Assembly: GCA_031490075.1 (NCBI GenBank)
Contig: GCA_031490075.1_4354.1
From: a phage
DNA length: 44,632 nucleotides
Reading direction: 5' to 3' (one strand)
Shown here: positions 6,945-39,390 of the stretch, in pieces
How positions within the stretch are numbered: position 1 is the stretch's first letter
How the letters are laid out: each line of letters starts with the position of its first letter
Made by a program: the position numbers and the translations under genes
Notes under the pieces: generated by a model
Database searches by the model: none
What the model saw: only the letters and a program-made list of their open reading frames with translations
What the model was told of the DNA's origin: nothing

Positions 6945-6963
6945 AAGGGGCTTTAAGCCCCTT
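6945..6963 (-). terminator. Hairpin terminator, probably bidirectional
   Basis: AAGGGGCT-TTA-AGCCCCTT with a T-run on the minus strand; sits between the convergent genes 6625..6939 and 6953..7168. Confidence 0.5.
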
Positions 6964-7168
6964 CACCTAACGCCAGCCACTTGGCGTCTACTTCCAGAAC
7001 TTCCGCCAGTTTGAACAGCGTTGCCGGGCGGACGTCCTGAGTTACTCCAAGTGCCAGTTGGTTAATCGCGCCCTGGGAAACGCCGGTCAGGGCCGCCAAA
7101 CGGCGCTGGGAGATGCCGAGTTCTTTACGGCGTTGTTCTACACGGATACCTAGTTCAGATGGTTGCAT
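6953..7168 (-). CDS. XRE-family HTH transcriptional regulator (Cro/CI-like)
   Basis: GISQRRLAALTGVSQGAINQLALG is a canonical HTH_3 motif; 71 aa; divergently transcribed from the early operon. Confidence 0.8.
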   Translation of the reverse strand: MQPSELGIRVEQRRKELGISQRRLAALTGVSQGAINQLALGVTQDVRPATLFKLAEVLEVDAKWLALGEGA

Positions 7169-7198: not shown

Positions 7199-7228
7199 AA
7201 TAGTACCATATTAATTATTTTAGAAAAG
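7199..7228 (-). promoter_or_regulatory. Putative promoter of the XRE regulator gene with imperfect palindrome
   Basis: Minus-strand -10 TACTAT with weak -35; imperfect site AATAG-N4-ATATT at 7199-7212. Confidence 0.35.
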
Positions 7229-7289: not shown

Positions 7290-7517
7290 ATGAACACAAT
7301 AACGGGAGCCATAGCTAAAGGTTTTCTAGCAATTTTCGGAGAATCGCAGGAAGTGTGCACAAAACATAAATTTGTACTTTCTTGCGTAGTCGGGGACGAG
7401 TTTGATGGGTTCGATAAACTTGTTGTCTGCGACCATTGCGGGCAAGAAGCTATTCAACACCCAAACGGTAAATTTGAATTAATAGACGATAGCCTTACAG
7501 AAGGCGACGGCGAGTAA
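7290..7517 (+). CDS. Hypothetical Cys-containing small protein
   Basis: GAGG upstream of ATG; CxxxxxxxC and CDHC suggest possible metal binding. Confidence 0.45.
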   Translation: MNTITGAIAKGFLAIFGESQEVCTKHKFVLSCVVGDEFDGFDKLVVCDHCGQEAIQHPNGKFELIDDSLTEGDGE

Positions 7518-21811: not shown

Positions 21812-22338
21812 GTGGTCAACAGGCCGCGTAATAACGGTATCTCTTTAGGTGTCATCAGTATACCAGTGCTTCGCTGGTTCAGCATAGGTGTACCAACATC
21901 CGCGGAGAACTCGCCCTTCTCCTGGTTGATGGCCTGCAACTCATACATGACAGGACCGTCAGCCGGATAAGACAGGTCTGTGCTGACGTAACGACGGAAG
22001 ACGAACTTCGGCAACTCGGTGTTACTCATAGGGATTTTATCCATCTCATCGTCAAGTTGATTGAGAATATCCGGTAAAGTAAACGTAGTCGTCTGGTCCA
22101 TATCACTGTTGTTAGCCGCCCCCGACGCCTCCATCGGGGTTGGCTCGAACGTGATAATTTCGCCTGTCTCCAGTGTTGCCGTGAGTTCCTGTAACCCGCG
22201 CACAAGATAGTACGTCTTAGACAGCAACGGGTGGCTGATTTGCAACGTGACGTAGTCCATCTCGCCGTCGGGATTTGAGGCCAGCTTACGGCGATAGGCG
22301 GCTTCTACTGATTCCTGACTCATTGCATAGGGTCCCAA
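21808..22338 (-). CDS. Minor tail protein
   Basis: Position after the tape measure gene; overlapping gene junctions. Confidence 0.45.
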   Translation of the reverse strand: MGPYAMSQESVEAAYRRKLASNPDGEMDYVTLQISHPLLSKTYYLVRGLQELTATLETGEIITFEPTPMEASGAANNSDMDQTTTFTLPDILNQLDDEMDKIPMSNTELPKFVFRRYVSTDLSYPADGPVMYELQAINQEKGEFSADVGTPMLNQRSTGILMTPKEIPLLRGLLTT

Positions 22339-22820
22339 ATTCGTGGAAACGATGATTGTGCGGTCCCGTAGGCTTTAAGGAAACATCCCAGCCCGTCGCC
22401 ATAACAACCATACAAATCCGGCAGATTGTTAATCAGGCACTGGTTCTCAAGGTCCTGGAACGGTGATTTCTCGGCGGTTGCTGTGAAGGTAATTGTCCAG
22501 TTAATCCCGTCTTCGGTGGATTCCGCGATGGTTGACGTAATTGTTACCTGATAATCCTCGATACCCATGCCGAAGTCGTGTGCCATCCAGAAACTTGAAG
22601 CACCGCCGTCGACTTTCTCGAGGAACGACAGAAACGCCTGCCGCCCCATTGCGGATGTAATCAGGGTTACGCTTATCGGAAACACGTCGTAATATGTGTC
22701 ACGGCCCTGACGCACCCCGCCACCGGCTAAATCTACACTCCAGACGTTGTTACGTCTGGTCATTGAGTAGCCTTTCGATACCACCGGCTTAAGGCTACGT
22801 GGGAAATATAAGTCACCCAT
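22320..22820 (-). CDS. Minor tail protein
   Basis: First gene downstream of the tape measure gene on the minus strand. Confidence 0.45.
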   Translation of the reverse strand: MGDLYFPRSLKPVVSKGYSMTRRNNVWSVDLAGGGVRQGRDTYYDVFPISVTLITSAMGRQAFLSFLEKVDGGASSFWMAHDFGMGIEDYQVTITSTIAESTEDGINWTITFTATAEKSPFQDLENQCLINNLPDLYGCYGDGLGCFLKAYGTAQSSFPRIWDPMQ

Positions 22821-22894
22821 TATTAGAACCTCGATAGATTGGATGTTAAGGTCAATGTTACCATGGTGGGAAGCATAGCGTCACCGCGTTTAAG

Positions 22895-22929
22895 TTGCCA
22901 AACAGCGCGTCGTCGAATAGCATGCTATT
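22895..22929 (+). promoter_or_regulatory. Putative promoter with palindrome upstream of the endonuclease gene
   Basis: TTGCCA-N17-TAGCAT with AATAG-N4-CTATT at 22916-22929. Confidence 0.45.
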
Positions 22930-22952
22930 AAAACAAGGCGAGCGAGGTAGGT

Positions 22953-23699
22953 ATGAGCGTTAAAATTGGTTGGGAAGAACGGAAGAAAATGGTCGAGTTA
23001 GATTTAAAGAAACACGGCGGGAAGTACACAATATCCACAAGTTATGACGGTAGTGAGTACATCGACTCGACTAGCAAGATTAGACTTATTTGCCCATCCC
23101 ACGGTGAATTTTCAGCTATAGCCCGTAGCATCTCTGGAGGACATGGGTGTATGAAATGCAGTCGAGAAGCTGCGGCTGCTGCATACCGCAAGAATACAGA
23201 TGCCGTTATTGAGCAAATAAAATCCGCGGATGCTCGATATACGTTCGTTGGTTTTGAAGGCGGCGCGTACCTAAACAAAAACTCCAAAGCGATACGTGCA
23301 TGTAATGACCACGGGTTGTTTGGTACAGGGGTTAATAATATTTTAGTGCACGGGCATGGTTGCCCGTCGTGCGCCAGACACGGCTACGATTCTAACAAAC
23401 CAGGGTACATTTACGGACTTCTTTCTGCATGCGGTAAATATCTTAAAATAGGTATTACTAACAAGTTAAAGCAACGACTTGCTCAACTGGAGCGCTCCAC
23501 TCCATTTGAGTTCCATGTGCTTAGTGTATACCGAGACGCTAATGGTGCTCGTTGCCGTATGTTGGAGCGATACTTTCACCGCGCACACATATCGGCGGAG
23601 CTAAGCAACTTTGACGGGGCCAGTGAGTGGATGGTGGCTAATAGCGAGATAATAGCCGAGTTCACGGAGCTATGTAACGGAAAAGTGCGCAATGAGTGA
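22953..23699 (+). CDS. GIY-YIG / T5orf172-like endonuclease (homing endonuclease-like)
   Basis: PGYIYGL...YLKIGIT...R matches a GIY-(about 10 aa)-YIG core; N-terminal duplicated Cys/His motifs; opposite strand to the surrounding tail genes. Confidence 0.6.
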   Translation: MSVKIGWEERKKMVELDLKKHGGKYTISTSYDGSEYIDSTSKIRLICPSHGEFSAIARSISGGHGCMKCSREAAAAAYRKNTDAVIEQIKSADARYTFVGFEGGAYLNKNSKAIRACNDHGLFGTGVNNILVHGHGCPSCARHGYDSNKPGYIYGLLSACGKYLKIGITNKLKQRLAQLERSTPFEFHVLSVYRDANGARCRMLERYFHRAHISAELSNFDGASEWMVANSEIIAEFTELCNGKVRNE

Positions 23700-23724
23700 A
23701 TTATGGCCCGAAAGGGCCATATTA

Positions 23725-26013
23725 TTACTTGAAACCCGGCGCATTTCTTGTGGCCTTGCGGGCCTTGCTAATCTTACTGTTACTGTTCTGCAAAGAGGCA
23801 GCCACTTGCTCCTCGATGATGATACGCAAACGGCCTTCATCATCCTGCTCGGTGGATACGTTGCCGATTTGCGAACTCGTGTTGTTTACGATGGTAACAT
23901 TAGACGGTCCGGAAGAAGACCCGTTTTGCCCCATAATTTCTTTCATCTGCTGTGCGGTGCGTACACGTGACGCACCAGCGGGCATGATAACTTCTGGTTT
24001 ACCGCGTTCGGCGATGGTTGAAGCCTGCCCCGCGGATAACTGTCCGCCCTGTTCACGTGCGGACCTGATAGCGGAAATCTGCGCCATACCCGCCCCAACG
24101 GCAGCAGCGGCAGCTACAGGAGCCAGGAACGGGCCAACTACAGGGATAGCCGCCGTGGACTTGTACGCCTCGATAGCCGCGGTGTAAGTGGCTATGGTGG
24201 CCTGTACGATAGCGAATGCCTTATACGCACCAGAGGCCTCGCCCAACGCAGACCCGATGTTTGAGGCCATGTTACCGAAGGCGGTTGCCGTTGCGTCGGC
24301 ACGCTTGGTTGCGTATTGCTCATTGATGGCGTTAAGCGCGGCCTGATACTGCTTCTCACTAATAAGACCCTGCTCACGGTACTTATCGGCTACCGCCAGT
24401 TTCTGCTGTTCCTGGATGTCGAGAAGCTCAAGCTCAGTAGCGTTCTGGCCCATAATCTGAGCCATGAAGTCGTCGCCTTTCTGCTTTTTCTCCTGCCGTT
24501 CTTTCTCGCGCTTATCCAATTCATCTTGCCGTTTTTGCCCGGCTTCGAGGACGATAGCTGTTTTAGCTTGTTCATATTCTTTCAGGGACAACGCGCCCTG
24601 GCTGTAGAACTCTTTTGCCTTAGCCAGTTTCTGCTGTTCCTGCGCGTCGATAGCCTTTAACTCGTCGTTGTTCTGACGGGCCAAAGTGTCGAGGTAATCT
24701 TGCGCCTGATTCCGCAATTGCTCTGCTTTCTTGGCGGCGGCTTTTGCTGCTTTATCGTCGGCGTTTCCGGTGCTGCCAGTTCCGCCCTTTTTATTAACAA
24801 GGCTGGCTAAGTCAATTTCTTGCTTCTTACGCTCGTCGTACTGCTTGCGCTGTTCCTCAATTTCTTTCTTACGCTGCTTAGACCTGTCGGTAATGGCTTG
24901 GGATTCGGCCTCTGCACGTTTTATACTGGCGTCGTATGCGGCATCAGCCTCTGCAGTCAGTTTTTTAAATGTGAGCGCCGCCGTTTTGCTCGGGTCAAAC
25001 ACATCAGCAAGGGTCTGGCCTAACGCTACCGCGTAGCCGTCAATGCGCTGGAACCACGCAATAACCTCGTGGAATGTCTGCTGGATATCCGGCAACCACT
25101 CACGGATGGCATCCGGTATATCCCCCAGCGAGTCGGACATATCAACAGATTTGTCCTCGGTATCAAATGCCAGGTCATTCAGGGCATCAGAAATAAACTT
25201 GAACGACTCATTGAACAGTGTCACCCAATCCTGGAGCGTGGCGGAGATCTCATTGGACGCGATGGCGTCGGTGAGTGCGGTGATAGCATCTTCCGCTGTT
25301 GCCGCTTGTTCGCCTACGGCATCGCCAAAACCGGATTGCGCTACTGCAAGAACAAGACCATCGAAAGAGTCCGCCAGGCTGGATAACTGACCGTCTAAGG
25401 TCTTCGAGCGCGTCTCCATCGCCCCAGCGAAATCAGTGTTACCGATGTTTAGCAGGTATTTCTGAATCTCTTCGGAGTTCTTCTTAACAGTAGTCGTTAC
25501 GCCACGGAACGTGAAAGAAACCGTATCCGCCTGTTGCGACGACTTGATGCCGAACTCTTTTAAGCGCTCAAATTCAAATGTACTGGCGTCGGCAACTGCC
25601 TCAATCATCTGATTAAGGTCTTTACCCATAGCAGCCGCGGTGTTGCCGTAGGAGATTAATGCCTCTTTGCTGGGGTTCAGGCCGAGGGCTACAAGTTTAG
25701 TGAAGCCCTCAACCGCCTGGTTAAGCCCGTATGGAGTCTCTTTTGCGAACTGTTGCAGGACGCTGAAAGCCTTAGCCGCGTTCTCGGCGCTCCCAGTCAT
25801 TGTGATGAGGCCGGAGTTCAGTTTATCGAAGTTGCGCTGGGAGTCCACCAGCGCACTGAACACCTGCTTCGCGGTTTCCAGACTGACGACGGCAGCAGCA
25901 GCGGCCCCAGCCGCCTTAGTAAGCCCGTTCAGTTGTGATGTGGTTTTATCGACGCCGGTCGATGATACTCGTACTATCAAGCTAGCGGTATCAGCCATGA
26001 TTTCTACCTTCAA
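23725..26013 (-). CDS. Tail tape measure protein
   Basis: 762 aa, Ala/Gln/Glu-rich coiled-coil composition; position downstream of the chaperone pair. Confidence 0.85.
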   Translation of the reverse strand: MKVEIMADTASLIVRVSSTGVDKTTSQLNGLTKAAGAAAAAVVSLETAKQVFSALVDSQRNFDKLNSGLITMTGSAENAAKAFSVLQQFAKETPYGLNQAVEGFTKLVALGLNPSKEALISYGNTAAAMGKDLNQMIEAVADASTFEFERLKEFGIKSSQQADTVSFTFRGVTTTVKKNSEEIQKYLLNIGNTDFAGAMETRSKTLDGQLSSLADSFDGLVLAVAQSGFGDAVGEQAATAEDAITALTDAIASNEISATLQDWVTLFNESFKFISDALNDLAFDTEDKSVDMSDSLGDIPDAIREWLPDIQQTFHEVIAWFQRIDGYAVALGQTLADVFDPSKTAALTFKKLTAEADAAYDASIKRAEAESQAITDRSKQRKKEIEEQRKQYDERKKQEIDLASLVNKKGGTGSTGNADDKAAKAAAKKAEQLRNQAQDYLDTLARQNNDELKAIDAQEQQKLAKAKEFYSQGALSLKEYEQAKTAIVLEAGQKRQDELDKREKERQEKKQKGDDFMAQIMGQNATELELLDIQEQQKLAVADKYREQGLISEKQYQAALNAINEQYATKRADATATAFGNMASNIGSALGEASGAYKAFAIVQATIATYTAAIEAYKSTAAIPVVGPFLAPVAAAAAVGAGMAQISAIRSAREQGGQLSAGQASTIAERGKPEVIMPAGASRVRTAQQMKEIMGQNGSSSGPSNVTIVNNTSSQIGNVSTEQDDEGRLRIIIEEQVAASLQNSNSKISKARKATRNAPGFK

Positions 26014-38675: not shown

Positions 38676-38708
38676 TTGATTAAATTCTACATTCAAATGT
38701 AGAATTTA
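38676..38708 (+). promoter_or_regulatory. Promoter with perfect 12-bp inverted repeat operator
   Basis: TTGATT, 18-bp spacer, TAGAAT; TAAATTCTACAT-TCAA-ATGTAGAATTTA (38681-38708) overlaps the spacer and -10. Confidence 0.55.
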
Positions 38709-38736
38709 AACGTACACTTAAACAGGAGAAATACAC

Positions 38737-39390
38737 ATGAAACTGCAAACATTAGAGTTCCCTTATGGAGAAATCACTTTTGACCGTGAAAACTTTATTA
38801 ACGTAAACGAGCTGGTTGACCAGATGAACCGTTGGCGTTTAGACAACGGCATGGGGGCCAGAGAGCTTCGCCAGGTCATGGCAACGGATGGCTTCAAGAT
38901 TTTCAAGGAGGAATGCGAAAAACAACTCGGAATCGAGAATGCCATAAGGGCGACGAAAGGCCGAAACGGTCGCACCTTTGCATGTCTCCATCTGGCAGTA
39001 TATATTGCTGAGCAATACAGCGCCTATTTCCATTTCCTCGTTATAGACCGCTTTATCACACAACGGCAGGTAGAACTACGAAACATTGGCGCGGTGAGCT
39101 TTGTCGAGCTTAACGCTGCCGTTAGTCGAATGATCGAGCGCACGGAGGGAAGAATTGGCCACAGTGGACACTTCATACAGGTGGCTAAAGCGGTAAAGGA
39201 ATCCGTAGATATCCGCGACGTAACGGGTTTCGATACATGGGACTCTCAGGATGCGAAGACCAATCAGTTGCGAAGTGACATCCAGAAAGCTCTGGTGACG
39301 CTTCTTGACATGGAGGCCGTTAATACATGGGGTGAACTGAAAGAGGCGATACCTCGGGTTGTGCGTAAATGTGCGGCTAATATACGTTAA
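38737..39390 (+). CDS. KilA-N domain protein
   Basis: N-terminal GEITFDRENFINVNELVDQMNRWRL resembles the KilA-N pattern (FDENGR...N...L...RFDNWLRL) of P1 KilA-type proteins; GGAG SD. Confidence 0.55.
   Translation: MKLQTLEFPYGEITFDRENFINVNELVDQMNRWRLDNGMGARELRQVMATDGFKIFKEECEKQLGIENAIRATKGRNGRTFACLHLAVYIAEQYSAYFHFLVIDRFITQRQVELRNIGAVSFVELNAAVSRMIERTEGRIGHSGHFIQVAKAVKESVDIRDVTGFDTWDSQDAKTNQLRSDIQKALVTLLDMEAVNTWGELKEAIPRVVRKCAANIR

Follow-up and report, generated by a model that had tools for sequence, protein, structure and literature searches.

The 904-bp segment between the minor tail and tape measure genes of the phage studied here is most likely a free-standing homing-endonuclease cassette, inserted exactly at the junction of the tape measure stop codon and the minor tail start codon. 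The DNA that carries it (hereafter the window, 44,632 nucleotides in all) is that of a K1G-like Kagunavirus (Guernseyvirinae) of E. coli. The protein encoded by the cassette belongs clearly to a described class and is an ordinary member of it; its novelty is low, given that the class is already in the literature and that its GenBank homologues are flagged 'GIY-YIG_SF'. What the locus offers is an exact insertion point, together with related genomes that hold the same junction in its empty, occupied and scarred states. The features of the locus are collected in Table 1.

Table 1. Features of the cassette, its flanks and the related promoter motifs, in window coordinates.
Feature	Position	Strand	Details
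Whole cassette	22821..23724	+	904 bp, from minor tail start codon to tape measure stop codon
Minor tail/virion protein gene	22320..22820	-	166 aa; PHROG 384
Minor tail start, altered	22812..22820	-	ATG GGT GAC; ATG AGC/ACC/ACT GA at all other sites
Minor tail start codon	22818-22820	-	Flanking codon of the cassette
Minor-tail-proximal cassette end	22821..22849	-	Degenerate duplicate of the tape measure 3′ end
Predicted sigma-70-like promoter	22895..22923	+	-35 TTGCCA, 17-nt spacer, -10 TAGCAT
Palindrome	22916..22929		AATAGCATGCTATT; overlaps the -10 element TAGCAT
Endonuclease ORF	22953..23699	+	248 aa, ATG start, intact
Zinc-finger repeat 1 (putative)	23001..23168	+	aa 17-72; C47, H50, C66, C69
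Zinc-finger repeat 2 (putative), CapR homology domain	23214..23375	+	aa 88-141; C117, H120, C137, C140
T5orf172/MUG113 nuclease domain	23382..23675	+	aa 144-241; Y154, K165, G167, R175, E205, E225
GC-rich hairpin	23702..23721	+	Terminator-like on + strand RNA; tail AUUAUUACUU
Tape measure stop codon	23725-23727	-	Flanking codon of the cassette
Tape measure last codons, recoded	23725..23739	-	CCG GGT TTC AAG TAA
Tape measure gene	23725..26013	-	762 aa
AATAG-N4-CTATT, form TTGCAC-10 nt-AATAGGnTACTATTCA	26901, 36517	+	
AATAG-N4-CTATT, form TTGCAC-10 nt-AATAGGnTACTATTCA	2285, 3384	-	
AATAG-N4-CTATT, form TTGACA-4 nt-AATAGnnnnCTATTATAGTTAGCC	7243, 9810, 13522		

The initial annotation of this DNA, made from the sequence alone, placed the gene on the strand opposite to its neighbours and convergent with the tape measure gene, and the coordinates of the open reading frames agree. 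Both neighbours are encoded on the minus strand, and the endonuclease gene therefore converges with the tape measure gene; a 25-nt gap, in which the hairpin TATGGCCCGAAAGGGCCATA lies, separates their stop codons. A GAGG ribosome-binding site is located 6-9 nt 5′ of the endonuclease ATG. The tape measure ORF scores slightly under the cut-off of the Pfam TMP_3 model, and its homologues carry the tape measure annotation in K1G, fFiEco02 and others. A search of the window against Rfam returned zero families, and the gene lies between two intact ORFs of the other strand, which led us to reject an intron or intein context. The minor tail gene exists in a 465-466-aa form in other Kagunaviruses (L002 1028-2428 in K1ind1, L003 1028-2425 in DUEC01 and L015 3001-4398), with the extra C-terminal ~300 amino acids matching PHROG 11600 and a tail-protein family.

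A GIY-YIG-type core preceded by two Cys/His-rich repeats had been proposed for the protein, and both elements are borne out. The quoted core motifs are found as GYIYGL (aa 151-156) and YLKIGIT (aa 163-169), and the C-terminal 100 residues exceed the Pfam cut-offs of MUG113 (PF13455, 35.5 versus 22.3 bits) and T5orf172 (PF10544, 27.5 versus 20 bits). The canonical GIY-YIG model PF01541 falls below its cut-off (13.8 versus 22.6 bits, E 0.07). The protein matches PHROG 681 'endonuclease' at 3e-48, sequence and profile searches of the PDB recovered no nuclease and gave weak zinc-ribbon and L37ae-like matches only, and an NCBIfam search gave no useful match. When modelled alone, the C-terminal domain reaches a pLDDT of 93 and a pTM of 0.84, and the solved structures that it matches best all belong to GIY-YIG nucleases: three SLX1 entries (6.3, 6.1 and 5.8), EF2693 (5.6), I-TevI (4.9), PD-T4-3 (4.8), AtGRXS16 (4.8), UvrC (4.5), Eco29kI (4.1) and T4 EndoII (3.9). 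Its beta-beta-alpha-beta-alpha core superposes on solved GIY-YIG domains, and membership of the superfamily is thus evident at the level of fold. Among viral models there are 236 structural matches, named T5orf172, CapR-homology, GIY-YIG or homing endonuclease, and the family is very large, with 17,465 representatives of clusters found at E≤1e-3, of which 7,684 reach E≤1e-10.

Six residues of the domain (G167, I168, R175, E205, G222 and E225) are invariant among 24 diverse homologues. By pattern and fold, R175 and E205 appear to correspond to the catalytic-type Arg/Glu pair of such nucleases, that of the ICP1 nuclease Odn included. A comparison by hhalign of the domain alignment with an I-TevI sequence gave no significant match, and the equation of R175/E205 with I-TevI R27/E75 is accordingly drawn from fold and pattern. 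For Odn, mutation of the conserved glutamate (E180A) abolishes cleavage both in vitro and in vivo (PMC8263062).

Each of the two N-terminal repeats carries four putative zinc ligands in the arrangement CxxH…CxxC, and these are conserved across 32 homologues, with all six cysteines invariant and both histidines nearly so (H50 in at least 90%). Alignment of the same homologues reveals a repeated module, ...Y.Y....Y......I.C..HG.F.......G.GC..C, that is present in two to four copies and is followed by the nuclease domain; in an exhaustive search, as many as 10 stretches of a single protein are matched. Relatives of 318-323 aa carry one repeat more than the 248-aa form. A profile search of these repeats, as had been recommended, brings repeat 2 above the cut-off of the CapR homology domain (PF21817, 31.3 versus 24.2 bits, 2.4e-7, aa 93-141), and PHROG 559 and 4605 match the stretch of repeat 1. 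Judging from profile and ligands, the N-terminal portion is a CapR-type zinc-finger module (PF21817/DUF723/DUF4379) and a putative zinc and DNA binder. More exactly, then, the protein falls outside the canonical GIY-YIG family and into the T5orf172 subfamily, with zinc fingers of the CapR/DUF723 type.

Genes of this kind have been described in ICP1 and many other phages, where T5orf172 endonucleases with repeated N-terminal CapR/DUF723/DUF4379 zinc fingers are encoded next to essential genes, tape measure genes included, and where homing of the zinc-finger/T5orf172 class was noted to be without experimental verification (Barth, Dunham & Seed 2023, PMC10448857). The protein of the window has the same order of N-terminal repeats and C-terminal T5orf172 domain, and members of the published class likewise vary among close relatives, differ in repeat number and are replaced at a locus by other classes of endonuclease. 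The present example differs in its Kagunavirus host lineage and in having only two repeats, and the published pattern is extended here by a precise point of insertion, a duplication at the junction, scars and a motif in the promoter. Its ligand arrangement, CxxH…CxxC, also departs from the CxxC…CxC reported for CapR of the Vibrio cholerae satellite PLE, with which it shares the zinc-finger module PF21817 (PMC8096241). CapR represses phage capsid genes, whereas the window protein keeps a full nuclease domain. Relative to the T4 Seg proteins and I-TevI the order of the parts is reversed, with the nuclease domain C-terminal and the DNA-binding modules N-terminal, and the second motif reads KIG instead of YIG. 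A 'Hef-like homing endonuclease' of T4-related phages is a structural match to the window protein in BFVD (E 4.7e-14). Hef is reported to cleave near its own gene (Sandegren et al. 2005).

Comparison of synteny with relatives, which the initial annotation had called for, defines the insertion site to the nucleotide. Most relatives lack the gene, and in these the stop codon of the tape measure gene overlaps the start codon of the minor tail gene as TAATG (…GGG TTY AAR TAATG AGC…), and this empty junction is present in K1G, K1ind1 and 18 of the 25 relatives from IMG/VR. In the window, the end of the cassette that adjoins the minor tail gene repeats the tape measure 3′ end in degenerate form, as evident from junction alignments in which the duplicate CGAGGTTCTAATA and the tape measure 3′ end CGGGGTTTAAATA each run up to ATG; written more fully, the cassette-end copy is …ATCGAGGTTCTAATA before ATG, as against …GCCGGGGTTTAAATA before ATG. 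Within this 29-nt duplicate lies a GAGG ribosome-binding site (the complement of 22830-22833) for the minor tail gene, which is uncoupled from the tape measure gene by the insertion. The duplicated junction thus allows the tape measure gene to keep its stop codon while supplying the minor tail gene with a ribosome-binding site and a start.

Carriers of the cassette also differ from empty genomes in a few bases on either side. The last tape measure codons read CCG GGG TTY AAR TAA at the empty site and specify the same amino acids; the synonymous change of GGG to GGT occurs in cassette-bearing genomes only. On the other side, codon 2 of the minor tail gene is changed from AGC, ACC or ACT to GGT in carriers. 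These carrier-specific variants reach only ~12 nt from each junction, so that no long co-conversion tract speaks for homing. The flanks are mosaics, with recombination breakpoints immediately at either end of the cassette.

The cassette is rare among close relatives. A DNA search identified ~95 GenBank records that hold the cassette flanks at at least 80% identity (80-95%), and the cassette itself is found in just two GenBank phages, fFiEco02 and DUEC01. It is also present in one of the 25 relatives from IMG/VR (contig L020). The three cassettes of L003, L004 and L020 are 99.0-99.6% identical to one another, and the tape measure and minor tail DNA next to them is 52-96% identical; the window cassette is 95.6-96.2% identical to these three, with flanks at 54-95%. 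The backgrounds of the carriers differ, as DUEC01 has a minor tail protein of 466 aa and the window and fFiEco02 have one of 166 aa. The ORF is intact in all four carrier genomes, with dN/dS values of 0.07-0.28, about 0.1, and the four alleles are under purifying selection. The gene is therefore not universal among relatives, as an immobile gene might be; it occurs or is missing at one precise site and is more conserved than the DNA around it, the pattern expected of a homing endonuclease gene.

More distant alleles, of 51-57% identity, also abut tape measure homologues, and a 39%-identical allele lies backwards in the head-tail module of another phage. In contig L032 (Logan SRR14057252, 10.4 kb), a 51%-identical allele, P0005, is situated between replication-type genes and a tape measure homologue, and where minor tail genes would normally follow the tape measure gene there is only a 90-aa ORF. 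This layout is unusual and could be that of a satellite or of a rearranged phage.

One could suppose that the nuclease is a weapon against competitors that cuts the DNA of co-infecting phages or satellites and does not copy itself. Such a use is on record for Odn (ICP1 Gp88), a T5orf172 nuclease and the one case in which cleavage by this domain, and its need for the conserved glutamate, have been demonstrated (PMC8263062); the possibly satellite-like setting of P0005 and a short and weak match to the candidate defence protein PADLOC PDC-S57 (2.8e-6) are in keeping with such a role. Odn is nevertheless unlike the window protein in that it has a RepA_N DNA-binding domain, targets a satellite replication origin, serves against a parasite and is not inserted at a junction. 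Moreover, conservation of the cassette greatly exceeds that of its flanks, and genomes of different background carry it at a single, precise junction, a pattern that shows that the gene itself moves. We consider a purely anti-competitor function improbable, although exclusion and homing are compatible because cutting the empty allele would accomplish both.

The junction has had other occupants, all in the same backward orientation. Contig L015 (IMGVR_UViG_3300045988_026856) encodes there a 323-aa three-finger T5orf172 paralogue that is 42-44% identical to the window protein, next to a minor tail protein with 93% identity to that of the window. In fEg-Eco19 the site is filled by an unrelated gene (L031 1357-2050) for gp47, a protein of 216 aa with a C-terminal AP2 domain. 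At the 3′ end of the gp47 gene an out-of-frame remnant of the last codons of a T5orf172 gene (…EGR*PRGWRK*) can be recognized, followed by the hairpin. This remnant and the similar hairpin suggest that one endonuclease gene has replaced another.

Other genomes show that the gene can also be lost. Scars of 45 bp, built from the two cassette ends, occupy the junction in L005 (384-428), L026 (2956-3000) and L035 (1122-1166, UTI89UKE1), and 29 nt of the minor-tail-proximal cassette end survive in the scars of L005 and L026. In all three scarred genomes the tape measure 3′ end has many synonymous differences and a TGA stop. These scars show a precise-looking loss of the endonuclease gene. With the sporadic distribution, the conservation of the cassette beyond that of its flanks and the alternative occupants, they sustain the original proposal of a mobile gene of the homing-endonuclease type.

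Loss of this kind, the position of the breakpoints right at the cassette ends, the mosaic flanks and the missing repeat of the 248-aa form could also be read as signs of an inactive hitch-hiker, the product of an old insertion, which has lost its cutting activity and owes its spread and loss solely to ordinary phage recombination. Such a passenger would hardly be expected to leave four intact copies with dN/dS of about 0.1 and conserved catalytic-type residues, and cassettes that are 99-99.6% identical in backgrounds with identities as low as 52-80% point to recent directed spread. We regard this explanation as very unlikely, and favour an active homing-endonuclease cassette.

How such a cassette might work can be sketched from its parts. 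The protein is built like beads on a string, in which two treble-clef-type CapR/DUF723 zinc fingers would read a DNA site and the C-terminal T5orf172 domain, a branch of the GIY-YIG superfamily, would cut near it. In a co-infecting relative that lacks the cassette, the fingers would bind the conserved 3′ end of the tape measure gene and the junction, or a site close by. In a mixed infection the enzyme would then cut the empty TAATG junction of that relative, and repair of the break by recombination with the cassette-bearing genome would copy the cassette in. The few changed junction bases of a carrier may guard it against its own enzyme. The L015 carrier retains an intact 23-nt stretch of wild-type junction sequence adjoining its minor tail gene, and the target thus cannot be that stretch alone, but must reach into the coding side of the tape measure gene or be contained in it. 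In L015, L005 and L026 this coding side shows heavy recoding at synonymous positions.

The arrangement of signals around the gene may help to explain why it is tolerated in a late operon. The hairpin between the convergent genes folds with -19 kcal/mol (z = -4.7) on the plus strand and -13.9 on the minus strand, where no U-tract follows it, and a comparable hairpin is found 3′ of the L015 and fEg-Eco19 genes. Because the hairpin is terminator-like only in the direction of the endonuclease gene, late transcription of the tail operon can read through it. The endonuclease gene would be transcribed from its own promoter in the early or middle phase of infection, probably as far as the hairpin, and late tail-operon transcription would cross the cassette antisense and silence the gene. 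We make no claim for a leftward minor tail promoter (TTGGCA-18-TATGCT), as it is not conserved in the L015 cassette.

The predicted endonuclease promoter matches the consensus at 9 of 12 positions, and the 323-aa allele of L015 has a promoter of the same geometry (TTGACC-17-TAGTAT). In the scan for promoter and terminator consensus sequences, sites in this region were no commoner than in shuffled sequence. The palindrome overlapping the -10 element had been described at the outset as shared. Exact 14-mer and 10-mer versions have no second copy in the window, and a shared motif, AATAG-N4-CTATT, emerged only once any base was allowed at the four central positions. In this form the claim stands, with eight copies in the window versus 0.055 expected (150-fold), all in promoter-like contexts. 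A further site, with one mismatch, is located at 7199. The seven sites outside the cassette fall into two families of promoter-like sequences that are strongly conserved; they are retained in fFiEco02, where they lie 5′ of replication-type genes, small early-type genes and backward-facing gene islands. The motif also recurs with at most one mismatch 5′ of the diverged alleles in L015, L034 and L032, although the surrounding sequence has diverged. Its central four bases are themselves palindromic, CATG in the window and TATA in L015, and differ by a complementary pair of changes. It is plausible on these grounds that the gene has been placed under the phage's own regulatory scheme, and the sharing of its palindrome with seven early/middle-type promoters suggests the same schedule, with antisense silencing late.

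The palindrome could in principle act as an RNA hairpin, but we rejected this role since there is no stable fold (z = 0.33). Its register relative to the -35 and -10 elements varies between sites, and two copies are located between the start of a gene for a 71-aa HTH-XRE (DicA/Cro-like) protein (6953..7168, minus strand) and the divergent gene at 7290 (+). The varied registers, the lack of an RNA hairpin and the copies flanking the HTH-XRE start would fit the operator of a dimeric regulator. We tentatively raise the possibility, which we hold to be less likely than not, that the palindrome is the operator of a phage-encoded dimeric repressor, with the 71-aa HTH protein as the candidate. Several diverged cassette lineages would then have captured or kept the operator, so that a selfish gene is switched together with the early and middle genes, and the junction would be a long-lived landing pad at which T5orf172 and AP2-type genes displace each other.

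The protein might instead be a domesticated DNA-binding regulator, whose zinc fingers bind a phage promoter so that it represses or modulates transcription and does not act as a nuclease. It does contain a CapR homology domain, the repressor activity of CapR, a zinc-finger protein that stems from this endonuclease lineage, is proven, and I-TevI doubles as an autorepressor (PMC8096241 and work cited there). Against this, the T5orf172 domain is complete, with R175, E205 and E225 invariant, and is under purifying selection. A useful regulator would not be expected in just ~3-4% of relatives, nor would its replacement by unrelated endonuclease-type genes or by scars. The motif AATAG-N4-CTATT is equally present at the other promoters of fFiEco02, which are homologous to those of the window, and hence belongs to the phage promoters and not to the cassette. 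A regulator in place of a nuclease thus seems quite remote, and the homing-endonuclease cassette remains our preferred interpretation.

The structural block of the window contains a second backward-facing gene (38737..39390, plus strand, in region 38680..39390), which encodes 217 aa and is situated between the portal and head-morphogenesis genes. Its product resembles PHROG 6095 'amidase' (9e-121) and, weakly, KilA-N, and a 30-bp palindrome, TTAAATTCTACATTCAAATGTAGAATTTAA, lies 5′ of it. In fFiEco02, gp05 and gp21 (L030 3983-4552 and 12934-13566) are depositor-annotated HNH/I-HmuI-like genes in the structural module. Given these two genes, there may be several endonuclease-type insertions in Kagunavirus structural operons.

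The locus leaves the current understanding of the T5orf172 class unaltered, and allows the 'hypothetical protein' of fFiEco02 and DUEC01 to be named. It shows that a backward gene can be tolerated in a late structural operon, by means of a duplicated junction and a predicted one-direction terminator. In closely related and easily grown coliphages, it presents a natural cycle of gain, replacement and loss of a selfish nuclease gene, with empty sites, two T5orf172 alleles, an AP2-type replacement and 45-bp scars all on hand. K1G-like phages with and without the cassette would therefore be a convenient system for a first experimental test of homing in this class.
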